64,000 nt of DNA from Eledone cirrhosa (lineage: Eukaryota): contig OZ024742.1 of NCBI GenBank assembly GCA_964016885.1, forward strand, positions 70,122,001 to 70,186,000, given 5' to 3'. Shown here in pieces: positions 2,140-61,627 of the stretch (the stretch's first letter is position 1; each line of letters opens with the position of its first letter). The notes below the pieces were generated by a model, which made no database searches, was not told where the DNA came from, and worked only from the letters and a program-made list of their open reading frames with translations. Position numbers and translations under genes: made by a program.

Positions 2140-3571
<1,432 letters not shown>

Positions 3572-4087
3572 ATATTTGGGGAGGGTCATATTTGCGTAAT
3601 ATTGCCAGAATTAATAACAGAACACACTCACTGTTTGGTTGGTTTTCGCTTCTCGCTGTCTTTTATATACATATATCTGCGATCTAACTTACTCGGTCCT
3701 CAATGTTGCCATTGACTGACCGGCGGTCAAAAATAATACAGATACAATATAGACAAACACATATATATATAGTTTACATAAATCTTTCGTTGCACATCTG
3801 CAACATCGTCAGTGGTGTTATATTCATTGTTCCTCCTGTTGTGTTGTATGTCTACGCCATTTTGTTTTTTGTTCAGTCTGTCTATATATTTATTTATTTA
3901 TTTGCTTGTTTGTTTATCTTATTTTATTTTGTCTTCTTTGCGCATGCGTTTGCGTGTGTGTATAGTGTTATGTGTGATGTGTGACTAGTGTGTATAGTGT
4001 TGTGTCTGCTGGGTGACTAGTGTGTGTTTATGTGCTTGTGTATGTATTTATTTATCTTATTTTATTTAATTTAATTTACTTATTTAT

Positions 4088-6568
4088 TTATACTTCTCTT
4101 AGGTCAGTGTTGTTTGTTTGGGTGTTGTTGTTGTTCCACTCATTCTTTCTGTTTAGCTTTGGTCTTCTAATTTCTATTTCACTGGCCTCTCTGATTTGCC
4201 TATCTGCTGGGTCATTCCTATGTTTAGATATTATTCTAATTTCTATGTTGTCTATGTTACCGTCATGATGTTGTCTAGCATGTTCGTATAGTACTGACCC
4301 GTTTTTTCGTCCTTTTAGTTCCCCCCAGTGTTGGTCTATCCTTTCACCTATGCTACGAGCTGTCTCACCTATGTATGTTGTTGTCGTGTTTCTGCAAGTA
4401 CCCTCTGTACATCTTATGCTATAGACTACGTTTCTAGTTTTACAGTTTATCCGGGGGTTCACCTTACATATGATACATTTCCTATTGGTACAGTGGGTTT
4501 TCTTAAAAGGGTAGGTTTTGCTGATCAGGGATTTTATGGTGGTTCCTGGCTTTTCTACCACCTTTATTTTTAAGTGGGTCTTTCTCAGGGCCTTTCTACA
4601 CTGGTTAGCTAATTTCCCTCCAGGGGTGGCGTCCACAAACATGACACTCTGATATCTCTGGTTGTCGTACCATGATGTGGCCTTCCCTATCTTATGTCTA
4701 GCCCTATCTAAGCTATTCCATGATTTGCTCCTGTATAGTGGGCAAATTCCTTTCATGTCCAGTTCTATGAGGGTCTTATACTTTTCCATGGCTCCTTCGT
4801 ATACTCTGACTCTGTCTCTTTGGTTGTAGCCAGAGAACTGCATGCGGTTGATGAAGTGTTGGATGTGTCCTTCCATTTCTGTTGGGTCGCACATGCTGGA
4901 CACATTCTTCATCACTCGTACCAAATCTGCGATCAGAATATTAAACTTAGCACTACTGGACATTGCTGAGTTTTTGAGTATCAGGTATTTGGAGGCCATG
5001 GGTTTAGCATAGTGTGAGTGGAGAATTTGGGCTCTCTCGTCTATAGTGTTGATCCAGAGTTCTGTGTCTAATACAGGTAGTCTATTGTTAGGGTGTTTGG
5101 AAGGGAAGTCTATAGTTACAGTTATACTCTGGTGTATGGAATTAGCTATCTGCTGGATGCTTTCCATCGTGCTACGTTCTAAATCAAACTTGTTAGTGCT
5201 CTCTAGTGGGGGTGTTCTTATAACTATATTGATATCGTCTACATAACGAGAGTACATGATGAGGTCTATGGAGCTTTCATTAAGGAGATCTTTAAGTCTC
5301 CTTTCCCACCATACCATGAAAAGGTTGGCAACATCGCCAGCTATGCTGACGCCGATGGCTGCTCCCTCATTTTGGGTGTAGATTTTCTCATTGAACTTAA
5401 ATATGTGGCCCTTTAGGGTAGTTTTGATACTAGCCCCTATTGCATGTGCGACCATTTTTCTTACCTGATCAGTGTTTTGGGGGGTCCGTATAGCTTTGGT
5501 CCACCCAATCCACCTTCCTATGGGAGTCTTTTTAGCCATTGAGGTTATGGTGGGGGGTCTACCTCTTATAGGTCTACTAGGGCAGAAACATCTAAGGTCA
5601 TGGCTGTCTAGGTAGTCAGTGTCGTAGGTAAGTCTAAGTAGGAGGCCCAGTTCGTCTGTGTCGACGTCGCAGAACTCCACCTCACTCTCAATGATCATCT
5701 CCACACATCTTTTCACAGCAAAATCAATGTTAATGGATGGGTACAGTGACACCACATCCATGCTGCCTATTATGCAGTTGGATAGGCTCCTGTTTTTGTT
5801 GCACTCACTGATTCTGCTGAGGAGGTCCTCTGTACTTTCACATACATCTGGGGACATCTTGATTATGGGGCGTATAACCATTGAGAGGAAGTAGGAGATC
5901 CTGTAGTTGCTAGCTATATTAGCTCCGCATACAGGTCTTGTTGGTGGTCCTATTGTCGGGTCGTCGACTGTCTTGTGGTCTTTGCGGAGCCCATACAAGG
6001 GTGGTATGCCATTGTTAGACGCCTGGAAGTTGTTGGCAGTGCGTCTGCTTGGCTTTAGGATGTCAGTCCACATCATCATGTGAGCGTTGAGGATTTTTTC
6101 TCTCCCATCGTGTGTTAGTTGTGCAACTTCGCTCGTGTTGGTGATGTGGGGTTGCATTGCCTCGATGTAGTTCGGCATGCTATCTATTGACATCCTACCA
6201 GACTTATCTGTGGGTAGACACACTACCTCACCATCCCTTGTGCGCTGCTTGAGGCTAACCAAGCCTTCTACAGGTTTTATCCCAAGTTGTTGGGCCTCTG
6301 GTCTGCTCTGTCTCATAGTGTACCTGTCTACTACTTGTCTAATCTTATTTCTAGCTATGGTGAACTGTGCCTCCGTCTCGTCATCTATTTGTTGTGGTAT
6401 GCAAACTCTTTTATTAAAGGGTAACCTCGTAGGATAGATATTACCCATCTTATATGTTTTGTCAGCTGGGTTGAAAAATAGTTTCTCTAAGGGGTTGTCG
6501 TTATTTCTATCGTCATAGTTGTGTGTGTTGCTATTATTGTTACCATGATAACAATAATAGCAACACAC
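4088..6568 (-). CDS. PLE reverse transcriptase + GIY-YIG endonuclease ORF, left arm (N-terminus probably truncated at the axis)
   Basis: 826-codon open frame. RT motifs TDKSG, GLRKDHK, PTRPV, SMDVVSLYP, QNEGAAIG, YSRYVDD, LPVLD; CX4CX2C linker; VVY...YIGET..SIGERIDQH...H...H GIY-YIG with CCHH. The GTG start lies in the opposite arm. Confidence 0.92.
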   Translation of the reverse strand: MCCYYCYHGNNNSNTHNYDDRNNDNPLEKLFFNPADKTYKMGNIYPTRLPFNKRVCIPQQIDDETEAQFTIARNKIRQVVDRYTMRQSRPEAQQLGIKPVEGLVSLKQRTRDGEVVCLPTDKSGRMSIDSMPNYIEAMQPHITNTSEVAQLTHDGREKILNAHMMMWTDILKPSRRTANNFQASNNGIPPLYGLRKDHKTVDDPTIGPPTRPVCGANIASNYRISYFLSMVIRPIIKMSPDVCESTEDLLSRISECNKNRSLSNCIIGSMDVVSLYPSINIDFAVKRCVEMIIESEVEFCDVDTDELGLLLRLTYDTDYLDSHDLRCFCPSRPIRGRPPTITSMAKKTPIGRWIGWTKAIRTPQNTDQVRKMVAHAIGASIKTTLKGHIFKFNEKIYTQNEGAAIGVSIAGDVANLFMVWWERRLKDLLNESSIDLIMYSRYVDDINIVIRTPPLESTNKFDLERSTMESIQQIANSIHQSITVTIDFPSKHPNNRLPVLDTELWINTIDERAQILHSHYAKPMASKYLILKNSAMSSSAKFNILIADLVRVMKNVSSMCDPTEMEGHIQHFINRMQFSGYNQRDRVRVYEGAMEKYKTLIELDMKGICPLYRSKSWNSLDRARHKIGKATSWYDNQRYQSVMFVDATPGGKLANQCRKALRKTHLKIKVVEKPGTTIKSLISKTYPFKKTHCTNRKCIICKVNPRINCKTRNVVYSIRCTEGTCRNTTTTYIGETARSIGERIDQHWGELKGRKNGSVLYEHARQHHDGNIDNIEIRIISKHRNDPADRQIREASEIEIRRPKLNRKNEWNNNNTQTNNTDLREV

Positions 6569-9003
6569 ACAACTATGACGATAGAAATAACGACAACCCC
6601 TTAGAGAAACTATTTTTCAACCCAGCTGACAAAACATATAAGATGGGTAATATCTATCCTACGAGGTTACCCTTTAATAAAAGAGTTTGCATACCACAAC
6701 AAATAGATGACGAGACGGAGGCACAGTTCACCATAGCTAGAAATAAGATTAGACAAGTAGTAGACAGGTACACTATGAGACAGAGCAGACCAGAGGCCCA
6801 ACAACTTGGGATAAAACCTGTAGAAGGCTTGGTTAGCCTCAAGCAGCGCACAAGGGATGGTGAGGTAGTGTGTCTACCCACAGATAAGTCTGGTAGGATG
6901 TCAATAGATAGCATGCCGAACTACATCGAGGCAATGCAACCCCACATCACCAACACGAGCGAAGTTGCACAACTAACACACGATGGGAGAGAAAAAATCC
7001 TCAACGCTCACATGATGATGTGGACTGACATCCTAAAGCCAAGCAGACGCACTGCCAACAACTTCCAGGCGTCTAACAATGGCATACCACCCTTGTATGG
7101 GCTCCGCAAAGACCACAAGACAGTCGACGACCCGACAATAGGACCACCAACAAGACCTGTATGCGGAGCTAATATAGCTAGCAACTACAGGATCTCCTAC
7201 TTCCTCTCAATGGTTATACGCCCCATAATCAAGATGTCCCCAGATGTATGTGAAAGTACAGAGGACCTCCTCAGCAGAATCAGTGAGTGCAACAAAAACA
7301 GGAGCCTATCCAACTGCATAATAGGCAGCATGGATGTGGTGTCACTGTACCCATCCATTAACATTGATTTTGCTGTGAAAAGATGTGTGGAGATGATCAT
7401 TGAGAGTGAGGTGGAGTTCTGCGACGTCGACACAGACGAACTGGGCCTCCTACTTAGACTTACCTACGACACTGACTACCTAGACAGCCATGACCTTAGA
7501 TGTTTCTGCCCTAGTAGACCTATAAGAGGTAGACCCCCCACCATAACCTCAATGGCTAAAAAGACTCCCATAGGAAGGTGGATTGGGTGGACCAAAGCTA
7601 TACGGACCCCCCAAAACACTGATCAGGTAAGAAAAATGGTCGCACATGCAATAGGGGCTAGTATCAAAACTACCCTAAAGGGCCACATATTTAAGTTCAA
7701 TGAGAAAATCTACACCCAAAATGAGGGAGCAGCCATCGGCGTCAGCATAGCTGGCGATGTTGCCAACCTTTTCATGGTATGGTGGGAAAGGAGACTTAAA
7801 GATCTCCTTAATGAAAGCTCCATAGACCTCATCATGTACTCTCGTTATGTAGACGATATCAATATAGTTATAAGAACACCCCCACTAGAGAGCACTAACA
7901 AGTTTGATTTAGAACGTAGCACGATGGAAAGCATCCAGCAGATAGCTAATTCCATACACCAGAGTATAACTGTAACTATAGACTTCCCTTCCAAACACCC
8001 TAACAATAGACTACCTGTATTAGACACAGAACTCTGGATCAACACTATAGACGAGAGAGCCCAAATTCTCCACTCACACTATGCTAAACCCATGGCCTCC
8101 AAATACCTGATACTCAAAAACTCAGCAATGTCCAGTAGTGCTAAGTTTAATATTCTGATCGCAGATTTGGTACGAGTGATGAAGAATGTGTCCAGCATGT
8201 GCGACCCAACAGAAATGGAAGGACACATCCAACACTTCATCAACCGCATGCAGTTCTCTGGCTACAACCAAAGAGACAGAGTCAGAGTATACGAAGGAGC
8301 CATGGAAAAGTATAAGACCCTCATAGAACTGGACATGAAAGGAATTTGCCCACTATACAGGAGCAAATCATGGAATAGCTTAGATAGGGCTAGACATAAG
8401 ATAGGGAAGGCCACATCATGGTACGACAACCAGAGATATCAGAGTGTCATGTTTGTGGACGCCACCCCTGGAGGGAAATTAGCTAACCAGTGTAGAAAGG
8501 CCCTGAGAAAGACCCACTTAAAAATAAAGGTGGTAGAAAAGCCAGGAACCACCATAAAATCCCTGATCAGCAAAACCTACCCTTTTAAGAAAACCCACTG
8601 TACCAATAGGAAATGTATCATATGTAAGGTGAACCCCCGGATAAACTGTAAAACTAGAAACGTAGTCTATAGCATAAGATGTACAGAGGGTACTTGCAGA
8701 AACACGACAACAACATACATAGGTGAGACAGCTCGTAGCATAGGTGAAAGGATAGACCAACACTGGGGGGAACTAAAAGGACGAAAAAACGGGTCAGTAC
8801 TATACGAACATGCTAGACAACATCATGACGGTAACATAGACAACATAGAAATTAGAATAATATCTAAACATAGGAATGACCCAGCAGATAGGCAAATCAG
8901 AGAGGCCAGTGAAATAGAAATTAGAAGACCAAAGCTAAACAGAAAGAATGAGTGGAACAACAACAACACCCAAACAAACAACACTGACCTAAGAGAAGTA
9001 TAA
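6523..9003 (+). CDS. PLE reverse transcriptase + GIY-YIG endonuclease ORF, right arm (N-terminus probably truncated at the axis)
   Basis: Identical protein to 4088-6568 except residue 9 (D vs G, the axis mismatch). YVDD at 7846-7857, VVY 8662-8670, YIG 8716-8724. First ATG at 6643. Confidence 0.92.
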   Translation: MCCYYCYHDNNNSNTHNYDDRNNDNPLEKLFFNPADKTYKMGNIYPTRLPFNKRVCIPQQIDDETEAQFTIARNKIRQVVDRYTMRQSRPEAQQLGIKPVEGLVSLKQRTRDGEVVCLPTDKSGRMSIDSMPNYIEAMQPHITNTSEVAQLTHDGREKILNAHMMMWTDILKPSRRTANNFQASNNGIPPLYGLRKDHKTVDDPTIGPPTRPVCGANIASNYRISYFLSMVIRPIIKMSPDVCESTEDLLSRISECNKNRSLSNCIIGSMDVVSLYPSINIDFAVKRCVEMIIESEVEFCDVDTDELGLLLRLTYDTDYLDSHDLRCFCPSRPIRGRPPTITSMAKKTPIGRWIGWTKAIRTPQNTDQVRKMVAHAIGASIKTTLKGHIFKFNEKIYTQNEGAAIGVSIAGDVANLFMVWWERRLKDLLNESSIDLIMYSRYVDDINIVIRTPPLESTNKFDLERSTMESIQQIANSIHQSITVTIDFPSKHPNNRLPVLDTELWINTIDERAQILHSHYAKPMASKYLILKNSAMSSSAKFNILIADLVRVMKNVSSMCDPTEMEGHIQHFINRMQFSGYNQRDRVRVYEGAMEKYKTLIELDMKGICPLYRSKSWNSLDRARHKIGKATSWYDNQRYQSVMFVDATPGGKLANQCRKALRKTHLKIKVVEKPGTTIKSLISKTYPFKKTHCTNRKCIICKVNPRINCKTRNVVYSIRCTEGTCRNTTTTYIGETARSIGERIDQHWGELKGRKNGSVLYEHARQHHDGNIDNIEIRIISKHRNDPADRQIREASEIEIRRPKLNRKNEWNNNNTQTNNTDLREV

Positions 9004-9273
9004 ATAAATAAGTAAATTAAATTAAATAAAATAAGATAAATAAATACATACACAAGCACATAAACACACACTAGTCACCCAGCAGACACAACACTATACA
9101 CACTAGTCACACATCACACATAACACTATACACACACGCAAACGCATGCGCAAAGAAGACAAAATAAAATAAGATAAACAAACAAGCAAATAAATAAATA
9201 AATATATAGACAGACTGAACAAAAAAAAATGGCGTAGACATACAACACAACAGGAGGAACAATGAATATAACA

Positions 9274-9313
9274 CCACTGACGATGTTGCAGATGTGCAAC
9301 GAAAGATTTATGT
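9274..9313 (+). ncRNA. Minimal hammerhead-ribozyme-like motif in the PLE 3' UTR (mirror copy at 3776-3815, minus strand)
   Basis: CUGACGA-U-GUUGCA(GAUG)UGCAAC-GAAA-GAUU-UA. Perfect 6-bp stem II, self-complementary stem III (AGAUUU, with wobbles), weak stem I. PLE terminal repeats are known to carry minimal type-I hammerheads. Confidence 0.6.
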
Positions 9314-9579
9314 AAACTATATATATATGTGTTTGTCTATATTGTATCTGTATTATTTTTGACCGCCGGTCAGTCAATGGCAACATTGAGGACCGAGTAA
9401 GTTAGATCGCAGATATATGTATATAAAAGACAGCGAGAAGCGAAAACCAACCAAACAGTGAGTGTGTTCTGTTATTAATTCTGGCAATATTACGCAAATA
9501 TGACCCTCCCCAAATATAACAATATCTGTTTCGACACACGATTTCATATAAAAAACCTCGCAAAACTAATTCATCGCCG

Positions 9580-9655
<76 letters not shown>

Positions 9656-9665
<10 letters not shown>

Positions 9666-9895
9666 CACAAGTATCAAAGTTATGTTCAAATCATTCAAAG
9701 CGATTAAATGAAATGAAATGATTTGAACATAACTTTGATACTTGTGTATTTTATATTCCTGCTCTGTAAAACACCTGATGTTCTTACATTGAGCTATTTC
9801 TCTTACTGGTAATAAGGTAGTAATAAATTACTGACCTTTCCTGTTTATAATTATTTATAGTATAGTATATAAACTATAAATAGTATCTTTATTAT

Positions 9896-10197: not shown

Positions 10198-10199
<2 letters not shown>

Positions 10200-10406
10200 C
10201 GAAGGAAATGTGGTAAGGAACCAGGTGGACCATAACGCACCAAAGTACTCAATACTTGAGGTAGTAGAGTGGGTAATAGGAACCAGTAAGACCCCGACAG
10301 CTGAGCTCAAGCCGTTTCGACGGCTAATTCTGGACTGGATTAGCCAGTCCAGAATTAGCCGTCGAAACGGCTTGAGCTCAGCTGTCGGGGTCTTACTGGT
10401 TCCTAT
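10198..10406 (-). mobile_element. Small fold-back element with left-side tail (second copy at 27108-27300)
   Basis: Perfect 63-bp arms 10276-10338 / 10344-10406, 5-nt loop attag, ~78-nt tail 10198-10275, (TA)n on both sides. Confidence 0.8.
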
Positions 10407-10735
10407 ATATATATATATATATATTAATTAAAATAACAGATTAAAGTTTAAGCAAAGAATCGCTGCTTTCACCCTTAACGGGATCTTCTGAAACTAACAA
10501 AGTCAATCTGTAAACGCAGAAGTGGATATTTCAAAAAACGTTGCAACCGGAGGAAGACAGGAAGACGATACTTTGGTTCGTGGAAACGTTCTCTGGCAAA
10601 GAACGGGAAAAAACGAATATAATACGTCATAAATAGGAGCGGTGAAAAACAATTACGCGCAAAGACAGAACCACGTTTATGGTTGGTTGGTTGGTTGGTT
10701 GGTTGGTTCCACAACCGGACGGTTGTTCATATATT

Positions 10736-10778
10736 GTCAAAGTTCTTTCGTCACACATTATGTGACATCGTCAGTGAC
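10736..10778 (-). ncRNA. Minimal hammerhead ribozyme motif in a PLE terminal-repeat-like fragment (~10420-10800)
   Basis: Minus strand: GUCA-CUGACGA-U-GUCACA(UAAUG)UGUGAC-GAAA-GAAC-UU-UGAC. Same CUGACGAU core as the large PLE, with a different but still paired stem II. Confidence 0.72.
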
Positions 10779-10819
10779 TGGGGATTCTTTTATTTGTTTT
10801 GTGCCTCTCCTTTGTTTTG

Positions 10820-11170
10820 AAGTTGTCTCTGTGGCCTACGCCATCTTGTTTTGAAGTTGACTCTGCTGCTAGAGACGGTGGAAATCCTGGCCTTGGGTTC
10901 AATCCTGCCCAAGAGGTACATGTAATCTTTTTCAGATTTTATTTTACATCCCATAGAAAAAATGAAAAGGTTTCCCGGGAACCCTACTCCCTACTAGTAC
11001 CGAACTTCAGACTAGGATCACCACCGTCTATGATCCCTCCAACTAGGCCGACGAGATTGCTACAAAAGTACAATGAAAATTAATAATTATAAATCTACTT
11101 TCAAAATCAAAGTTAAAAAGTTGTGGTGTCGTTCATGGCTTTCCTAGAGCTATTAGTCATATTTATGGTC
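10820..11170 (+). repeat. Dispersed repeat with a tRNA B-box-like motif (inverted copy at ~28810-29260)
   Basis: Blocks ctagagacggtgga...ttgggttcaatcctg...caagaggtacatgtaa and tctactttcaaaatcaaagttaaaaag..gtggt.tcgttcatggctttcctagagctattag recur as reverse complement at 28.8-29.1 kb. Confidence 0.6.
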
Positions 11171-13949: not shown

Positions 13950-14730
<781 letters not shown>

Positions 14731-18866: not shown

Positions 18867-18898
<32 letters not shown>

Positions 18899-19261: not shown

Positions 19262-21080
19262 CTAACAGCGCTGCGATCGAATGTGGCTTTTTAGCCCAGC
19301 CAATGATCTAAAATGTCTTGCACAGAGTCGGCAACCAAAACATTCACTGGGAATAGTCGGCTGTGGTTGGAGTTCGTGTACTTTTGCATGTCGCTTGAGT
19401 CCTCCTGCTGATTTACATTCTCTACCACATGTTTGGCAAGCATGATGAGTAGCATCTCCAACAGCAGCCTGGTAGTCAACCACTGGTCTTACTTTATGAC
19501 TGCGAAGATGACTTTCGAGTCCAGCTTTGCTTAGGCAGAGTCTCGCACATACGCTGCATGTCAGCACCATAGGAGGACCCTCGCCGTCTGGAAGTGCAAC
19601 AGCAATGCCCTTCCTCACATCCCGCTTTACTTTCTCGTATGCGATTCGAGATGCCTCAAAGGCAACTTTTCCCTCATATACAGTCTTTCTCCATTTATTA
19701 CGATCAGCAGCAATATTTTCCCATGTATCAGCAGAGATGTTAGCGTCTTTCAGAGAGGATTTCAAGGAATCCTTATACCACCTTTTTGGTTTATGTGGCG
19801 GTCGTTTTCCTTTAACCAACTCTCCATAGAAGATTTGTTTTGGTATTCTAGAATCCTTCATCCTGGCAAGGTGACCACTCCAACGGAGTCGTTGCTTAAG
19901 CACAAGAGCTTCTATACTGTCACACATAGAGCTTTCCAAAATCTCGACATCGCTGATGTGGTCCTTCCAGTGAACGCCATGGATCCGTCTGAGACACATC
20001 TGATGGAAACGCTCCAATTGCTTAAGGTGGTGTCGATATGTGACCCAGGTCTCGCAGGCATAAAGAAGACAAGAGAGCACACATGCCCTGTACACCTTTA
20101 CCTTTGTCCTCCTGCATATATCTCGCCGACCCCAGAGTCGCCTTTCTAGCTTTCCGAAAGCATCACTTGCTTTCCTAATCCTAAGTGAGATTTCACTGTC
20201 AAGGTTGCTGTATCGATTGACAGTGCTTCCCAGGTAGACAAACTGATCAACCACTCCAAGTCGTTTGCCATACACATAGATGTTTGGTTCAGTGTACTGC
20301 TTACCAGGGGCAGGTTGGTACATGACGACGGTTTTCTTGAGACTGAAAGTCAGACCTAGGGCAGTGCAAGCGTCAGAAAATGTATTCAAAATGTGCTGCA
20401 TATCACTCTCTGTGTGCGCTACAAGATCGCAATCATCTGCATACAAGAGGTCTCTTATGATTGATGTAAATACCTTTGTCTTCGCAGCAAAGCGCCTGAT
20501 GTTAAATATGCTGCCTGAGGTTCGATATCGGATGTAAACACCATGCTCGCAATTCCTGAATGCAATACAGAAAACCATTGCAAAGTATATGGCAAACAGG
20601 GTCGGTGCTGGAATATCCCCCTGTTTCACTCCATTTTTTACTGAGATAGACTCTGACATGTTACCTCCGACATTAACCCAAGCCTTCATGTCGTCATGGA
20701 AAGACCTAACTAAATCAAGGAACTTATCAGGGCAACCAAGTTTCTGGAGAACCTTCCATAATGCATCTCTGTTAACAGTATCGAAAGCTTTTGTCAGATC
20801 GACAAAAACCTAATACAGATCCAAGCCTTGTTCCATGCACTTGTCCTGGAGCTGTCTAGCTGAGAAGATCATATCAGTAGTGCCGCGTCCAGCACGAAAA
20901 CCAGATTGACTTTCAGGAAGAACACAATCTGCAATGTGTGTCAGCAGACGGTCCAGAAGCACCCTATATAAAACTTTCCCTACGACAGAAAGCAATGATA
21001 TACCTCTGTAGTTCCCACAATCGATCCTGTTACCCTTTCCCTTGTACAAGACCACCATTACTGCATCTCTCCAGTCCTCA
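19262..21080 (-). pseudogene. RTE reverse transcriptase with three C-terminal C2H2-type zinc fingers
   Basis: NYRGISLL, ESQSGFR, *VFVDLTKAFD, GVKQG, LLYADD, YLGS. ORFs 20810-21058 and 19262-20689 are in one frame, separated by a TAG at 20810-20812. Confidence 0.85.
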
Positions 21081-27107: not shown

Positions 27108-27300
27108 ACGAAGGAAGTGTGGTAAGGAACCAGGTGGACCATAACGCACCAGAGTACTCGACACTTTGGGTAGTAGAGTGGGAAATAGGAAAAGAGTCAG
27201 GACCCCGACGGCAGAGCTCAAACCATTTCGACGGCTATTTCTGGAAATAGCCGTTGAAACGGCTTGAGCTCTGCCGTCGGGGTCCTGACTCTTTTCATAT
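27108..27300 (-). mobile_element. Small fold-back element, same family as 10198-10406
   Basis: Same tail start aacgaaggaa.tgtggtaagg. Arms 27185-27241 / 27244-27300 with a 2-nt loop. Confidence 0.8.
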
Positions 27301-27333: not shown

Positions 27334-27680
27334 GTAGGAGGTGAGTAATATTGTAGAACAATAAAACAATGCATATATCAGATAAGTAGCACTCAACAGT
27401 TGATAGAACTGGAGTATATATAAAGAAGAAATTAAAAGATGGTTAAAGAAGTTCCGTATATTTTATGATGCGCATTTCGAAAACAACATCATCCTGGGAC
27501 AAAAATTGTGTTCTGTTGACTGCACACTTTCTTGTTCACAAGTGTTTTTAGGCCTCATATCATATTACCTTATTTTATCTGATGAGAACACAATTTTTGT
27601 CCCAGGATTATGTTGTTTTCGAAATGCGCATAATAAAATATGCAGAACTTTTTTAACCAACTTTTAATTTCTTCTTTATA
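27334..27680. mobile_element. Fold-back element with a hammerhead and a left-side tail
   Basis: Arms ~27418-27514 / 27585-27680. Tail ends ...agcactc.aca.gtt...ctggagtata, as in 35181-35225. Related fragment at 3449-3500. Confidence 0.75.
27571..27640 (+). ncRNA. Minimal hammerhead ribozyme
   Basis: UAUUUUAU-CUGAUGA-GAACACAAU...GUUGUUUUC-GAAA-UGCGCA-UA-AUAAAAUA. Perfect 8-bp stem I, perfect palindromic stem III AUGCGCAU, cleavage triplet AUA. Confidence 0.85.
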
Positions 27681-27779: not shown

Positions 27780-28416
27780 AATATGATAATAATGGAGCTG
27801 CGGCGCTGCAAATGGGTTACATATGAAAAAGTTTGTCCTCATCAGTGGCCATCCAACCGTCGTAGGCATTTCGTCGCATTAGAGGCCATATACCTCAGGT
27901 TGGTGCGAGCAACGGCTAAAAAAAAGTCGTTGGGACACGTAAATAAGGGGGACGCTAGGGTGAACGAACAAAATGGTTTAAGCAGCAGAAAGTAATGAAG
28001 AAGGAAACAAGTCCCAGATTTCTATGAATATAAATTCGGTGAAATCGTGAACGAGAGAATAAAGACCATCAAACCTGGTTGAAATGTGAGCAAGGAAGGA
28101 ATTTCGCACAGGTCTAACGGGAGGAAGAATGGGTCTGGTCTGCGAATTCGGTAAACATAAGTTTTGTGAAGTCGCAGACGAGAGAGAGAAAAAAAAAAAA
28201 AAAAAAAAAATTCATACAGGCTTGGCCAAGTGCCCGCGAGAAAAAGGAATACGGACAGGTCAAATAGGAAAAGAGTCAGGACCCCGACGGCTGAGCCCCG
28301 GCCGTTTCGACAGCTAGATCCGAACGGATATATATATATCATATGTATATAATATATATATAAGTGTGCATGTGTAGGCGTAGTATATATATATAAATAT
28401 CTATCTATCTCTCACT

Positions 28417-28583
<167 letters not shown>

Positions 28584-29384
28584 CAGTGGCGGACTGGGTC
28601 TAAAAGTATTGGTTGCCAGGAAATGAAGGGGGCCCACCTACATATAAAATATTATCATTTCATTTTTATAATGAATAAATAACGTTTTCGAAAAATACAT
28701 AAGTGGAAACAAAACAGTGCAATCAAATTTTTGCGGAAAAATATCTTACTTTTGCCAATAAAAAATATTATGTATTTTGCGAAATCCAGAGACTTTCAAT
28801 AATGACCAAAAGTTGACCCTGAATATTACTAATAGCTCTAGGAAAGCCATGAACGATACCACATCTTTTTAACTTTGATTTTGAAAGTAGATTTATAATT
28901 ATCAATTTTCGTAATACTTTGGTACCTGTCTGGTGGCCTAGTGGGAGGAATCTTAGCCATTGGTGATCATGGTCCGATCATGGTTCGATTATGGTCGGGT
29001 GTAAGATTCCCGCTAAACCTTTTCAGTTTTTTTTTTCTATGGGTTGTAAAATAAAAACTGAAAAATTTACATGTACCTCTTGACCAGGATTGAACCCAAG
29101 GCCAGATTCTCCACCGTCTCTAGTACCTACCGCTAGGTCACAGAGACAACTACGAAAATCTTATGAAAATGCATACTTATAAACCTACTTTCAAAATTTT
29201 CAAAACAAAATGATGTGGTGTCGTTCATGTTGTTGCTCCTACTTAAGGTCAACTTCTAAATCATTTGGGTGCTCCATAAACTACATCCTCCATCTGTTTC
29301 TCATCTATCTAGACTACATTTTAACCTGTAATCCGGTTCATTTCTGTTGCACCTCATTTTTCCCCAGTCCTCTCTCTCTCTCTC

Positions 29385-31361: not shown

Positions 31362-31893
31362 CACCTTCACCACAAATTGATTTGACAGATGTCTTTAACC
31401 GATTGATACCAAATGTTATTTGGTCAGTAGTTCGTGTGTAAGTATATAAATAAATAAATAAATATATATATATATATATATATAGTTAAAAGAATAGAGG
31501 TGTAACACACAAGTTATTATATATTGGTAAACGGAATAGAAAATGCTGACAAATTGTTCACAGTTGAAAAATGGTTTAATTAGGAATAAAAGAGTATTAG
31601 TGATTGTATGGGTTAGTATTCAGTGGTGGTTTTAAGTTTTTAAGTTTTACCGGTTGCGCATTTCTAAATGCTTTTCAAAAATAATTTTGAGATAGAGTGT
31701 CCGTGTTCAAACAACACGGACACTCTATCTCAAAATTATTTTTGAAAAGCATTTAGAAATGCGCAACCGGTAAAAACTTAAAAACTTAAAACCACCACTG
31801 AATACTAACCCATACAATCACTAATACTCTTTTATTCCTAATTAAACCATTTTTCAACTGTGAACAATTTGTCAGCATTTTCTATTCCGTTTA

Positions 31894-35125: not shown

Positions 35126-35180
35126 TTTATAAAGATATGTTTTAACGGCTTGTACCTCTTGGTAATTCAACAAATATATA

Positions 35181-35527
35181 TATTTATAACTGATTCGAAG
35201 CACTCGACAAGTTTTCTGGAGTATAATATCAATGATATTAATAAATGGAAATTATATTTATAAAACCATATTTATTCTATTATATATATTTCAAGGGTAC
35301 CAAAACTTTGGTACGCTCTCATCAGATAAAATACAAAGTTTGTTTTATAAATAGTTCCTATCCAGGAAAAACTTGAACCGTTAAGATCTCGTTCCTGGAT
35401 ATGTCAATATTTATAAAACAAACTGTATTTTATCTGATGAGAGCGTACCAAAGTTTTGGTTCTCTTGAAGTATATATAATAGAATAAATGTGGTTTTATA
35501 AATATAGTTTCCATTTATTAATATCAT

Positions 35528-35533
<6 letters not shown>
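35181..35533. mobile_element. Fold-back element carrying a hammerhead in each arm
   Basis: Arms ~35226-35368 / 35392-35533. Hammerhead at 35273-35333 (minus, intact CUGAUGA...GAAA) and at 35426-35486 (plus, GAAG variant). Single-arm copy at 32595-32690. Confidence 0.8.
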
Positions 35534-35567
<34 letters not shown>

Positions 35568-42080: not shown

Positions 42081-42250
42081 ATTATTTTCAGTAATGCACT
42101 GGTTAATTGCTGGCCTTGTGCCTAAAGTAGAAACAATTATTTTCAGTAATGCACTGGTTAATTGCTGGCCTTGTGCCTAAAGTAGAAACAATTATTTTCA
42201 GTAATGCACTGGTTAATTGCTGGCCTTGTGCCTAAAGTAGAAACAATTAT
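42081..42250 (+). repeat. Three tandem 55-bp copies of the SINE 3' end
   Basis: cagtaatgcactggttaattgctggccttgtgcctaaagtagaaacaattatttt starts at 42089, 42144 and 42199. Confidence 0.9.
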
Positions 42251-43712
42251 TTTTATTACAAATAAACCTGTGCCATCAATAATGATGGGAATAGCGTTGA
42301 ATGTATAATTGTTTCTACTTTTGGCACAAGACCAGCAATTAACCCAGTGTATTACTGGTACTTTATTTTATGGACCCCGTAAGGATAAAAGGTAAAGTTA
42401 ACCTCAGCGGGATTTGAACTCAGTACGTAAAGGGACGTAACTGTGCTGCAAAGCATGGCGTCCGACTCTCTACCGATACTGCCAATCAGCGTTCAGGATT
42501 GGTATGCCATATATACCAGAATTACCGGATTTATTAACAATCATACAAACTGAGAAATTTGTGTTTTGATAAATAGTTTGCATAAGAGAAGCCCTATAGC
42601 TTATGTTGATTAGAGATACGTGCATGTGATTAAAGACGAAAATGATACTTTGATCATTCATTTCTAGGATATAATTACATTGATATTCAGCATGTATGTA
42701 AAAATGACATACAGGATTACATGTATGAGTAACTTTGGAGAAATAATTATTTACAGGAGCAAATGTGGGGTTAGAACCCAGGAATTTGTTATTGGAATGT
42801 AAACTTCTTATTGTAGCAACATGTCTCGTATATGAACTGCATTATGTTCATGTTTGTGCGTAAATAACGACTATAATATACATATATGGACTGTTAAGAA
42901 TCGAACTATGTTGCTCTTGATGGTCGAGAAAACTTGTTAAAATGTTTTGTGTAGCAGGCAGAAATTGTGAGAAAGAAGGTTCTGCGAACTCATTGGTGTG
43001 TACATGCATATCAGTATATTAATATCATTATTGAGGGAGAAGGATTTGACAGACTCGATAATGTGGCATATTTAGTCCGTCAGCTGCTTTCATACTACTG
43101 CTTGGCTCTTAACTACCTTTATCAGAAGAGTTTATTCTACTACAAGTATTCGGGTCATATCGTAGTTCTGGGGATAATAACACCCTCCATTACTATCAAA
43201 GCTGCAACAAAAAAACATTAGCGTACCTTTTCAACCTCTCACTAAACCATAAAAAGTAAAAGAAAATAAATTGAGTCTCTTTACAATCTCGCCCAACTTT
43301 GTTTTCAGCTATTCAGAGTTGATGAAATAAAGAACCAGTCAAGTATTAGTCCTGGTAGACAACATGTTCTCAAAACAACTAGAACTATGCTTAAACTAGA
43401 AAATAATATCAACATTATATTGTTTGCAATAAAAGCGTAAACGTAAAGTGAGTACAGACGCACACAGTACACATACTAATACACTCATACTAGTACATAC
43501 ACTCACACAACACACAACATACACACACACATATATCTTCTTCTTCTTCTTGCTCGACGAGGCTGGGGTCATCCTAAGCCAGCGATCCCAATGCATCGTC
43601 GTGCGTAGAGCCGACCAGGTCCACCAGCTCCCTCCATAGCAGAGCCCTGAGGACCATAAAAAAACATCAGATGGGACTAACATGTTTTTATATATATATT
43701 ATATATATATAT

Positions 43713-44084
43713 GTATTGTTAATTTTGGGGAGGGCCATGTTGCCAATAAAGCACACACTATTTCATTTTCAATTCGGTTTTATTATTAGTTCGTTCTCTT
43801 ACGTAATTATCAAAGTTCTTTCGTCACACATTCTGGGATCTCAACAATAATTATTTGTTTTCTTCTTTGTCTCATCTTCTCTTTTTTCTGGTCTTATTTG
43901 ATGATGTAGCAGAATGTGAGACGAAAGAACTTTGTCAATTACTTAAGATAACGAACTAATAATAAAACAGAAGTGAAATTAATAGTGCATGTGTTTTTAT
44001 TGGCAACATGACCCTACACAAATATAGCAATACTTGTTTCAACTCATGATTTCATATCAAGAATTTTGCAAAACAAATTCACAC
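43713..44084 (+). mobile_element. Non-autonomous fold-back relative of the large PLE
   Basis: Arms 43713-43835 / 43910-44033. Ends and tail are colinear with 3564-3600 and 9495-9575. Degenerate hammerhead at 43898-43937. Confidence 0.8.
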
Positions 44085-44119
44085 ATATATATTTAGAAGT
44101 ATATATATATGTTGTTTTT

Positions 44120-44185
<66 letters not shown>

Positions 44186-58232: not shown

Positions 58233-61200
58233 CTACAGCCGCATGACCAGAGTAGGCCCACTCACACGGGCCATTCTCGCCACATTCACCCACCTTTCAG
58301 CAAATGTACTGGGGTGGGGGGGGGGGGCAGCACTTCTCTCTCCACCCTCACCTTCCTTTCCAAGTGAAACTTGAATAAGTTGAGGAATTGGCCGAAGAGA
58401 AAAGTGTGTCTTCAGTCCTTTCAACCTCGTCCACCATACAACCTCTTTCGCTACTGCCACCAGACAGGAAAATTGCCTGCCCTTCCTGGCCAAAAGAAGG
58501 CGGCGGGTCAATCTTCACTATGAACTCGACCGATAGCCGGATCCGTTCTACACGCGACAACAGCTGTTCCACATCACTCCACAAGTCAGTTATGCACAGA
58601 CACTGGACGAGTGCGTGCAGAATGGTTTCGTCGCTCTGCGCACATCTCGGGCAGGTCCGTCTGACAGCACTTCTGTGCCTGTAGAATTTATCTTGAACCG
58701 GCAGTGCCCCCCAGTAGCACTGCCAAGCGAGGGATTTTTGGAAATTATCCATCGTCCCCGGCTCGAAAGTTCTCCGGTACAGACTGGTTAGTTCGACTTC
58801 GTTGACTCCCAGAGCCTCTCCGAATGCGTCGTCGCACTTGCCCACCACTAATCCTCTATAGAACTCAAGAGTGGAAGTTCCACTGACCACATTGCCCACT
58901 TGGTAGGGGGCAGTGAGTGCCTGGCAACATTCCAGATCCCACTCTCGATCTCTTCTTGACCCAGGACTGCAGCTCAGTCAAAGAAATGAGCTGCGGAAAG
59001 GCCCATCTGACAAACGGCGACCACACCTGTTCGCCATTTAGGCAGAATATCTGGAGATGCCGCAGCCTCAGCGCGTGCCTGCGCATCATTAACCACGGCA
59101 TGCCCAGCCCTCCACGTAGAGGGTGCTGGCAGCAGATGGACCGCCTCACCAGCGGAACCTGACCCCTCCACAAGAATTTGAAGAGGAGCCGCTCCAAGAT
59201 GGCAAGGCGCAAACGGAGGCAAAGGACGACGGTCAGACGGTAGTAGATGACGGACGCGTTCGCCACCTCCGCCCGACCTTTCAGTGATAGCTTCATCCCA
59301 GCCCATTTCTGGCTGAGACTGGTTACCCTGCCCGTCACCTCGTCCCAATTCTTATCCACCTGGAGGTCTGGCCCGAACCAAAACCTGAGCAACTTTACCG
59401 GTCCTTCCGTCCAGCGCCTAACAACGGTGTTGGACGGCATGGCCTTGCCTCTCCAGGTGCCGAATTGCAAGCCCACCGACTTTTCCAGGTTAAGTTTTGC
59501 TCCCGTCAACCTTTCATATTCCTCCAATAAGTTGCCGACTACCTCGATTTCTGAGGTGTCCGACACCATCACGGTGATGTCGTCCGCATAAGCCGACACA
59601 GCCTTTCCGCGTCCCGGTTCGAGCGGGATGCCCTGCAACAGCTCCAGCTTCCCCAGTCAAGGCTCGAGAGTCGATACGTACAGAAGGGAGGAGAGAGGGC
59701 ACCCTTGATGGACCGATCGGGAGACCTGAAACGGTTCCGAGAGGTGGCCGTTAATTTTGACCATCGAGCAGGTGCCGCTGTGCATTGCAGCAATCCAGCT
59801 TCTGAAGACGGGGCCGAAGACAGCCTCCAGATACCGATGGTCAACCCTATCGAATGCTTTTGATTGATCTAAATTGATCAGAGCCCCACCGAAGCCAGGT
59901 TTACACCCTACCCTCTCTATGATGTATCGCATTAGAGGGAGGTTGTCATGTATGGACCTGGTTGGTATTGCACAAGTTTGCGCCTCCCCAACCAAATCCC
60001 CGACGACAAGCACCAACCTCTTCGCTAACACCCTGGCCAAAATCTTAAACTCTGTGTTGAGCAGAGTTATGGGCCTGAAATTGTCTAATGTGTCCCTCTT
60101 GTTCTCGTCTTTCCTTATCAGCGTCACTACGCCCTGGCTCACAGAACTGGGAATACTCCCGTTTTGCTGCCAGTTGCAGTAGAGGGCTTCGAGGAGATTG
60201 TAGAACAAGTCTGGCATATTTACGTAAAGCTCGTAGGGCAGACCATCCAAACCGGGTGACTTGCGCCTCATGCAGCCAACAAGGGCATCCTGAATCTCGG
60301 CTGAAGTAATTGGCCTTTAGCAGCGCCCAGCGTCAGCCGTCGAGAGTTGCGGCAAGCCGTCGAGGTAGGGACTGAAGTCCACCACCATCTCTGACCCGCA
60401 ACTTCCCCCGAACAACCGAGCAAAATGTTGGCGAAAGGCCTCACACATCCGCTTGGAATCGCTCAGCTCGTGTCTGTCTCAGTCCGTCAAAGACCGAATC
60501 GTGGTTTTATTACCACGCTGCGCCTCTGTCACGCGGGCCCATCGAACAGCTTTGGTTCCCTCATTTCTCAGAGAACGGGCCTTACCTCTGACAATACAAC
60601 CCTTGTGTTTCGCATTGAAGAAATGGTCTAATGCCATTCTCGCTGCTAGCACGTCATCTGCAATGCCACTACCTATAGCCTCGTCTAACTTATCTACCAA
60701 CTCCCCCTCCTTTCTATTTTTCTCTAACGCTACTTCTTTGCTAAACTCTATCGACATTACTCTAATCTCTCTTTTGAGAGCCCCCCACCATCTATTGTTG
60801 ACGACTCCCCTTGTCAACTTTTTCTTAACTAAATTGTTGACCTGGTCCCTGTAAGCCTTACGTGCCGGAAATGACATGTTTAGCTTCCAGTAACCAGGTC
60901 CTAACCTACGCGTCTTATCTAAGTCGACCATACAGATCACAAACTTGTGATCTGAATAGGCGACCGTTTCAAAATGTGGACAGCTTACACTATTTCTGTC
61001 TATTTTCCTAATGAATATCCTGTCTATATACAATCTAGATGACCCTATGCGGTTAGCCCAGGGCCACACTGGAGCATTAGGGAAATCTAGTTGGTACCTG
61101 TCAGACAGTTGGAACTCGCTGATCAGGTTCTTGAGGCTTTTGCACCACCGGCTCCTATTGGATACTCCCACACAGTCCCAGCGTGCGTCTAAGATGCCGT

Positions 61201-61627
61201 TCCAATCCCCCACTAACATTAAAGGGCGAGACATACCCAGAAAGGCTTCCAGGCATCTAAAGAAGTCCGGCCGTCCTGCCCCAGTAGGAGCATAGACGGC
61301 CACCAGTCTAAAGGCACCACCTTCGTTATTGTTCACATCCAGGACCACCAACTTCCCGTCCGGGTCGCGGAAGATCGACCTTATCTCGAGATCCAGGCCT
61401 TTCCTAAACAGCACTGCCACCCCGCCTTCCATTCCCGGCCGGCTAACAGATGCAAAGATCTGATAGTCGTTGAAAATAGGGGCTAGTGCGCGCGTGTCGG
61501 AAATCCTGGTCTCGCTGACGGCAATTACATCCATTTCTAGAGACCTGAGGTCGTTGAGCAGGTGACCCTGCTTCCAGGACGATCCCAGGCCTCAAACATT
61601 TAAACATCCTACTCTTAATACGGCCAT
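58233..61627 (-). pseudogene. Tx1/L1-type ORF2 (APE endonuclease + RT + Cys/His domain), frameshifted
   Basis: MAVLRVGCLNV*GL, VAVYAP, GDWN, IDRIF, SDH, GYWKLN, KSPGLDGLPYE, FRPITLLN, DQSKAFDRV, QGCPLS, AYADD, CPRC...ETILHALVQC. Confidence 0.9.

Follow-up and report, generated by a model that had tools for sequence, protein, structure and literature searches.

Palindromes with a tail on one side only recur in the (TA)n runs of the 64,000-nucleotide stretch of Eledone cirrhosa DNA analysed here (the window). One of them, a short element at 43713-44081, has ends that resemble those of a 6-kb palindrome carrying the open reading frame of a Penelope-like retrotransposon (PLE), and five more one-sided fold-backs lie in (TA)n within the window. 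A preliminary description took the short element for a miniature of the large one, with a breakpoint that is fixed across diverged relatives. The question raised by this locus is what the short element is, and why its two arms stop where they do. We conclude that it is very probably a decayed pair of PLE end fragments (hammerhead motif, spacer and ORF start) lying head to head in a TA run. It is likely to go back to one old, heavily 5'-truncated head-to-head insertion of a Neptune/Nematis-type family that is sister to the family of the large element. The coordinates of all these features are collected in Table 1.

A one-sided palindrome in a TA run

Both ends of the small element are present in the window exactly as the preliminary description wrote them, and the element and its tail are real. 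Their sizes, given there as 372 bp and 55 nt, are corrected here to 369-370 bp for the span 43713-44081 and to 48-49 nt for the tail; the homologous right end is 44081, and the tail of the large element comes to 56 nt if positions 9575-9581 are counted. A similarity search of the window finds the arms, 43713-43835 and 43910-44033, as inverted repeats with 84.1% identity (E 3e-32), and a gapped alignment carries them inward to about 43851 and 43894, with 116 matches and 21 mismatches in 143 columns. Folded as single-stranded DNA the element reaches -91.7 kcal/mol (z -17), which none of 100 shuffles equalled or bettered. The 48-nt tail (44034-44081) lies on the right side only and is unpaired. 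The end of the bare arm is exact, as both arms have C at that base, and there is no TA overlap. Inwards the bare arm reaches to about 43880-43899, further upstream than the tailed arm does. Both flanks are TA-rich runs, in which no target-site duplication can be read.

That the small element is an assembly or library artefact, or a chance likeness, is very improbable. Palindromes beside microsatellites are hard to assemble, and no contig listed spans the whole element, but a fold-back artefact would not produce arms that disagree, as these do, at 21 of 137 aligned letters. One contig from run X1 matches 43727-43833 with 0 differences, and the E-values of the matches lie between 1e-15 and 1e-32.

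The layout is a familiar one. A standard PLE insertion, as described in the Fig. 2 legend of PMC8557442 and in the available part of PMC8969392, consists of an inverted 5'-truncated copy together with a tail of 30-40 bp at one end only, and in rotifer elements the pLTR holds the first codons, which the tail extends (PMC3846280, text available in part). The small element likewise has an inverted, 5'-truncated copy placed head to head, a tail at one end with limits that are fixed among copies (46-49 nt, above the quoted 30-40), and a pLTR that takes in the ORF start, with an ATG frame homologous to that of the large element. An inverted truncated copy with a one-sided tail is the published PLE signature, and the small element is a further example of this known pattern. 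It is most likely inert now, since its arms have diverged by 15%, its hammerhead helices are broken and its ORF start contains a stop.

Table 1. Coordinates, strand and evidence for the features of the window discussed in the text
Feature	Position	Strand	Basis or detail
Large PLE palindrome, in (TA)n	3564..9581	.	arms 3564-6545 and 6546-9525, axis 6545/6546, tail 9526-9574 plus 7 letters
5'-truncated PLE ORF: RT (YVDD), CX4CxxC linker, GIY-YIG-type endonuclease with CCHH	6546..9003	+	ORF, homolog alignment
Minimal hammerhead core of large element	9277..9310	+	motif scan, alignment, fold (helix II forms)
ORF start of next tandem unit, containing arm end (+26) and tail	9500..9581	+	translation, homolog comparison
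Third pLTR fragment, intact minimal hammerhead of same type	10736..10800	-	85% to small element over 41 nt
Left (TA)n target run	43689..43712	.	sequence
Tail-less (bare) arm, pLTR fragment, ends at +26 of ORF start	43713..43890	-	arm alignments, relatives, purine fraction
First 26 nt of ORF, ATG at 43738, outer end of bare arm	43713..43738	-	translation
Decayed minimal type I hammerhead core, left arm	43813..43844	-	alignment, fold
Tailed arm, pLTR fragment: just before hammerhead to +26 of ORF	43891..44033	+	arm alignments
Decayed minimal hammerhead core, right arm	43898..43932	+	motif scan, alignment
First 25 codons of PLE ORF, one in-frame stop at codon 14	44008..44082	+	translation
One-sided tail, 48 nt; family ends 44032/33 and 44079	44034..44081	+	alignment, reads
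Right flank, interrupted TA/CA run	44082..44110	.	sequence

The large palindrome

The arms of the large element measure 2,982 and 2,980 nt; apart from a 2-nt gap at a T run and a single mismatch, 3 nt from the axis, they are identical. A 5'-truncated ORF is present in each arm. It shows YVDD at residue 434, CKTRNVVYSIRC at 701 and YIGET at 724, and H739 and H755 are conserved in 25 aligned homologs. The order of a single ORF with the RT followed, at the C terminus, by a GIY-YIG endonuclease with CCHH is that of a canonical EN+ PLE. Against Pfam the ORF gives RVT_1 weakly, with an E-value of 2e-4 that is below the cut-off, and no GIY-YIG match. The closest of 155 homologs is an Octopus vulgaris protein with 68% identity.

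Between RT and endonuclease lies a linker, CTNRKCIIC at 685-693, whose three cysteines are invariant in the homolog alignment. A CX2-5CxxC linker in this place marks the Neptune/Nematis type in the clade definitions of PMC8557442 (available in part), and by these motif definitions the protein sequence classes the large element as a Neptune/Nematis-type PLE. The other clades were tried and rejected: Penelope/Poseidon, which is without the linker zinc finger that is present here; Hydra, in which CCHH is absent, the linker is CxCX5C and the motif DKT, where the present protein has CCHH, a CX4CxxC linker and a conserved DKS; and Naiad/Chlamys, with an N-terminal endonuclease and no hammerhead, where the endonuclease is here C-terminal and a hammerhead core is present.

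The preliminary description argued that the 6-kb palindrome is biological and not an assembly artefact, and this is probably right on the indirect grounds of its outer ends, the mismatch at its axis and the neighbouring fold-backs. The outer ends are unlike each other and coincide with the two fixed ends of the family, and the flanks differ too; a library or assembly fold-back would run on into the flank. Fold-backs with arms that are 78-98% identical are common nearby. Judged from the sequence, the large palindrome is in all likelihood real, with arms whose identity could be partly polished in. At its far end, the 7 letters between the shared tail and the TA run (9575-9581) remain in the ORF frame (His-Arg-Arg), so that the end of this element may lie about 10 nt past the common end of the family.

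The shared ends carry the start of the PLE reading frame

In the search of the window, the right end of the small element (44005-44081) matches 9497-9573 of the large one with 80.5% identity over 77 nt (E 7e-15). Within this match the tail is identical at 38 of 48 positions to 9526-9573, ungapped, as counted by eye in the preliminary description, and its statement that the tail-less arm stops at the homologous position in both elements also holds: counted from the ATG, each has a bare arm that reaches +26 (44033/43713 and 9525/3564), the end being defined only within 4 nt in the large element, where ATAT merges with the TA run. The similarity starts 3 nt before the ATG (9500 in the large, 44008 in the small element). 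Upstream of the ATG there is no in-register likeness, with 5-8 of 20 letters identical in each of six 20-nt blocks, the hammerhead core excepted.

The shared 75 nt begin at the ATG and encode the N-terminus of the PLE ORF. The frame reads MTLPKYNNICFDTRFHIKNLAKLIH in the large element, and the small element has a decayed version with one stop. Compared with the first 40 residues of homolog P0038, the large-element peptide scores 40, the best among 120 homologs (shuffle p 0.0005). It matches two further N-termini more weakly (P0009, p 0.002; P0023, p 0.02), and it has no match at p < 0.05 to those of P0017, P0006 and P0056, three of the six tested. For the decayed peptide of the small element itself the score summed over homolog N-termini is not significant (p 0.26; P0038 alone p 0.018). 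A phmmer search of the peptide against 121 proteins returned nothing significant (best E 0.37, P0038). Among metagenome relatives (66 loci fetched, 13 examined), the 3' end continues into the element's own 5' region in three, L001, L003 and L005, and the order in L005 is hammerhead, AT-rich spacer, ATG. Given the match of the ATG frame to P0038 and these three 3' ends repeating the 5' region, the element end is a pseudo-LTR that carries the ORF start of the next tandem unit, an arrangement also reported for rotifer elements (PMC3846280) and for PAc, a lizard element discussed below (PMC11167929). The bare arm stops at +26, and the tail extends to between about +72 and +82. No inverted pLTR arms were found in the 13 loci examined of the 66 fetched, and these loci are silent on the arm end. 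One of them, L001, has long in-frame 21-nt tandem repeats in the N-terminal region (493-1165 and 1890-2406) of an ORF of 1,632 codons, which recall the repeat-rich inserts of rotifer elements.

The small and the large element differ at 15 of the shared positions, and the read majority has the large element's letter at 9 of these 15, so that most of the differences are assigned to decay or subfamily change in the small element. A bias of the differences towards third codon positions is not significant (7 of 15, p 0.20). We infer that this sequence stays alike between the families since it serves both as the protein N-terminus and as a cis site for priming. No stable stem-loop was found over the ORF start of the large element (-1.0 kcal/mol, compared with -5.5 in the small one), nor was a counterpart of the AC-rich stem-loop of PAc.

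The preliminary view of the small element as a miniature of the large palindrome finds no support if it means a deletion derivative or a mini-family that propagates itself: the two have nothing in common beyond the ORF start and the hammerhead core, and the spacer and centre are near single-copy in contigs. One version of this view, that the small element arose from the 6-kb element by internal deletion, has the same ends and the same general layout on its side. The interior of the arms shows no collinear similarity, which refutes it, and we give it almost no credence: the region between hammerhead and ATG is without similarity, and the hammerhead of the small element is nearer to that of the third pLTR fragment than to that of the large element. 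Between core and ATG the small element has a spacer of about 75 nt and the large one a spacer of about 190 nt, and these two spacers are unrelated, which points to a sister family and away from a deletion product.

Hammerhead motifs

According to PMC4209133 (Cervera and De la Pena 2014; text available in part), metazoan PLEs contain minimal type I hammerheads, and dual motifs can lie 100-700 bp apart on opposite strands. The motifs described here are alike in their long helix II and short helix I, the extra nucleotide before helix II, the near-absent helix III and the opposite-strand pairs 100-700 bp apart. The third pLTR fragment has the full set of features (core boxes, extra nucleotide, helix II of 7-8 bp and helix I of 4-5 bp): its core at 10774-10740 on the minus strand folds a helix I of 4 bp and a helix II of 7-8 bp with the extra base. 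In the large element, where the set is partial, helix II folds. Unlike the motifs of that study, both hammerheads of the small element are damaged. In the left-arm core helix I is still able to pair, with damage to helix II and the first core box, and neither copy folds as a hammerhead. Narrow Rfam scans gave no hammerhead family at either of the two hammerhead loci scanned, and among the 150 of 302 matches listed for the whole window there were only hairpin and microsatellite matches below the gathering scores.

The third fragment belongs to a stretch at 10690-10870 (minus strand) that represents a very abundant sister family, with the intact minimal hammerhead followed by an (AACC)n run. This family dominates the reads, with more than 20,000 RAD reads per run at the hammerhead, far above the ORF start, and for this reason it may represent hammerhead elements of a non-autonomous kind. 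On the minus strand, 44903-44870, 29849-29808 and 13909-13876 each hold a single hammerhead core of another type and are probably further PLE end fragments.

Two fixed ends among the copies

The preliminary description proposed that scattered inverted-arm endpoints would speak against a fixed breakpoint. We approximated a plot of these endpoints with sequencing reads, and no scattered ends were seen among the loose ends listed. Four of six listed runs were mapped on 43660-44122 at 80% likeness: X1 and X2 are contigs from one sample, perhaps the source of the assembly, and X4 and X5 are RAD reads from two other samples labelled as the same species. Among the loose ends listed, which are the best-supported rows with 616 weaker rows outside them, 41 contigs in X1, 46 in X2, 1,780 reads in X4 and 1,883 in X5 break off behind 44032 into (TA)n, the RAD reads covering the same loci repeatedly and not representing independent insertions. 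This pile makes up 77% (X4) and 85% (X5) of the fall in depth across that place. The alignments stop one base before 44033 since most copies, like the large element, have T there. A second pile lies at 44079, where 1,276 of 1,673 and 1,246 of 1,595 plus-mate reads end, and the flanks beyond it are mixed and AT-rich (agreement 0.36-0.37). Most of the mapped reads come from the abundant sister family with the hammerhead of the third fragment, and not from the subfamily of the small element itself.

A second family in the window agrees. Its members A (10198-10404) and C (27108-27299) are 80% identical, have tails of about 80 nt, and have bare arms that end at the same place. Both are short palindromic fold-backs set in (TA)n, and their one-sided tails are unusually long; they differ in their centres and are accompanied by a third piece at 28262-28316. 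The claim of a breakpoint that is fixed across diverged relatives is thus borne out, with family copies ending at +25/26 and at about +72. The two outer ends of the small element fall on these two fixed family positions, which by analogy with PAc are likely to be the two reverse-transcription start sites of this class.

One insertion or a unit that is copied?

A short palindrome might also be a non-autonomous mini-element, similar to MITEs or retrozymes, that is copied as a 370-bp unit by the enzyme of the large element. It retains exactly the parts that would be required in cis (hammerhead, ORF start and tail); Chlamydomonas has non-autonomous PLEs with a 3' end similar to that of autonomous ones, according to the available text of PMC8557442; and A and C are two palindromes of similar size from one other family. 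Copies of such a unit should share their interior, but the depth of X1 collapses there: the summed word depth, which is no copy number and is read here for a contrast of four orders of magnitude, is 24.5 at 43884-43899, whereas the hammerhead reaches 265,068 and the ATG 57,998. At 80% likeness, depth is high over the hammerhead and ORF start only, with spacer and centre near single-copy, and the centre is covered by single contigs at a depth of 3.5-13.

The inner junction of the small element is likewise not repeated in any of the 15 joints listed among the records that passed a filter. Seven of these link left-arm to right-arm sequence elsewhere (43790/43983 to 43873/43983), with sides of just 21-37 nt and, in most, unknown letters between them, which makes the joints weak evidence. 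The differing centres of A and C also speak against copying as a unit, and a palindrome would be a poor RNA template for it. The likeness to MITEs and to non-autonomous PLEs and retrozymes (PMC8969392 and, on MRC1, PMC8557442, both available in part) lies in a short, non-coding sequence with inverted repeats and a hammerhead. It ends at the termini, where MITE-type elements have inverted repeats on both sides and the small element has its 48-nt unpaired tail on the right, and in the copies, as many of the same structure are expected and there is no sign of unit copying. We regard a mini-element as improbable and retain the reading as a single head-to-head insertion.

Separate priming or fold-back

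How PLE inversions form is still open according to PMC8557442 (available in part). The closest experimental guide is PAc, a Poseidon element of Anolis carolinensis (Frangieh et al. 2024, PMC11167929; text available in part). Its RT-endonuclease, a predicted dimer, cuts AT-rich DNA on both strands in vitro, and its cDNA begins at two internal RNA sites within the ORF start, which are matched by the genomic ends with the tail between them. On this model, the RT-endonuclease would have nicked the (TA)n target of the small element; one target end would have primed cDNA at +72, giving the tailed arm, and the other would have received sequence starting at +26, giving the bare arm. Synthesis would have ended after about 180-190 nt, and the halves would have been joined head to head at a variable inner point. 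The idea of two start sites is carried over from an element of the Poseidon clade; there the tail is located 111-118 nt into the ORF and measures 30-40 nt, compared with 46-56 nt in the present elements.

The same insertion could have formed by fold-back, with cDNA from the tail end snapping back and copying itself until the endonuclease or a TA microhomology halts the second strand 46-49 nt short, and with the asymmetric centre produced by a later deletion. We consider this a serious possibility that falls somewhat short of probable. The loops of the large element and of palindromes A, C and F are 0-5 nt, and the single mismatch of the large element lies 3 nt from its axis. Self-priming has been proposed for such palindromes (PMC3846280, available in part) and endonuclease resolution for the tail (PMC8557442, available in part). 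A TA-like run of 3-7 nt closes the bare arm of five of seven elements, the small element and C having none; over all seven, this overlap is not significant (Fisher p 0.078), and p falls to 0.013 only when the best copy per family is picked. The bare arm of the small element ends on C with no TA overlap, which also counts against fold-back.

The unpaired centre bears on the choice, as fold-back of the tailed strand predicts it in the tailed arm. Collinear alignments of relatives cover 43782-43880 and 43811-43899 and run past the left hammerhead into the centre. Purines make up a fraction of 0.85 of 43852-43892 on the minus strand and 0.15 on the plus, compared with 0.68 upstream of intact hammerheads. 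From these alignments and this composition, the centre of the small element is assigned to the bare arm. A dimer-shuffle test that compared the spacer, in either orientation, with the third fragment and the large element gave no information (p 0.73-0.79 when read as minus); the scores were 21 and 22 in this orientation and 12 and 6 in the plus. Element D (27380-27680) also has its unpaired centre in the bare arm, and its tailed arm is cut inside the hammerhead. Palindromes are prone to central deletion, and a later deletion in the centre could give the same picture as separate priming in both the small element and D. The longer bare arm in these two elements inclines us slightly towards separate priming of the two arms, by a dimer with two starts, and away from the tailed strand having simply folded back.

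Generalizing from this, we put forward as a tentative and rather doubtful proposal that in octopus PLEs which target TA and bear the linker an enzyme dimer primes the two arms separately. Its two start sites would be fixed in diverged families, one at +26 of the ORF and the other at about +72, and a short TA overlap with the target would usually aid the near start. If this is true, stumps with a longer tail-less arm would be genomic proof against simple fold-back, and with thousands of them per genome the question becomes countable.

Relation to known PLEs

The nearest known counterparts of the small element are the insertion units of canonical EN+ PLEs (Craig et al. 2021, PMC8557442; Arkhipova et al. 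2013, PMC3846280; both available in part). They have the same 5' truncation, the same inverted truncated copy placed head to head, a tail at one end, and a pLTR that contains the first ORF codons and a hammerhead; in clades with a linker zinc finger the targets are (TA)n, as here. The small element differs from them in that each side retains no more than the last 180-190 nt, in tails of 46-56 nt in place of 30-40, and in having no upstream direct pLTR and no readable target-site duplication.

PAc, as far as the available text of PMC11167929 describes it, likewise has two fixed ends in the ORF start that bound the tail, AT-rich targets, and a hammerhead upstream of the ends. It belongs to a different clade, the linker zinc finger being present in the octopus elements described here. 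The ends lie at +26 and +72 here and at about +111-118 in PAc, and the hammerhead lies 75-190 nt before the ATG here and over the ATG in PAc. In the octopus elements a few TA letters are often common to the near end and the target, whereas priming by PAc is reported as non-homologous.

In the literature searched, which lay mostly outside subscription papers, we found no report of these octopus elements and no report of twin priming in PLEs, and the search returned no newer papers on PLE mechanism after 2024. The small element itself is most likely ordinary. What it adds is that the signature of two fixed ends, tied to RT starts in one lizard Poseidon element, extends to a linker-bearing PLE clade in octopus, and that the ends remain in register between families with little else in common. 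Being so rich in stumps of this kind, the genome is well suited to counting which arm is the longer and how much TA overlap each end has.

Other features of the window

Several further palindromes accompany those discussed above. D and 35180-35538 are related to each other, with hammerhead cores in the arms and one-sided tails of about 40 nt. The fold-back palindrome at 31484-31880 has a 5-nt loop and a 34-nt one-sided tail, and no hammerhead core was found in it by motif pattern. Palindromes in or beside TA runs also lie at 13998-14357, 9656-9756, 28848-29229 and 42199-42357. Within the first of these, 14132-14221 scores 41.6 bits to Rfam mir-1 (gathering score 45.6), probably just since it forms a hairpin.

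Two LINE remnants lie on the minus strand, one at 19262-20809 with an RT and C2H2 zinc fingers, and one at 58348-61591 with endonuclease, RT and zf-RVT spread across several frames. Finally, at 42081-42253 the end of a short repeat family is present three times in tandem as perfect 55-nt copies; the family is also found at 18897, 24953, 29590, 30343, 41399 and 57656.
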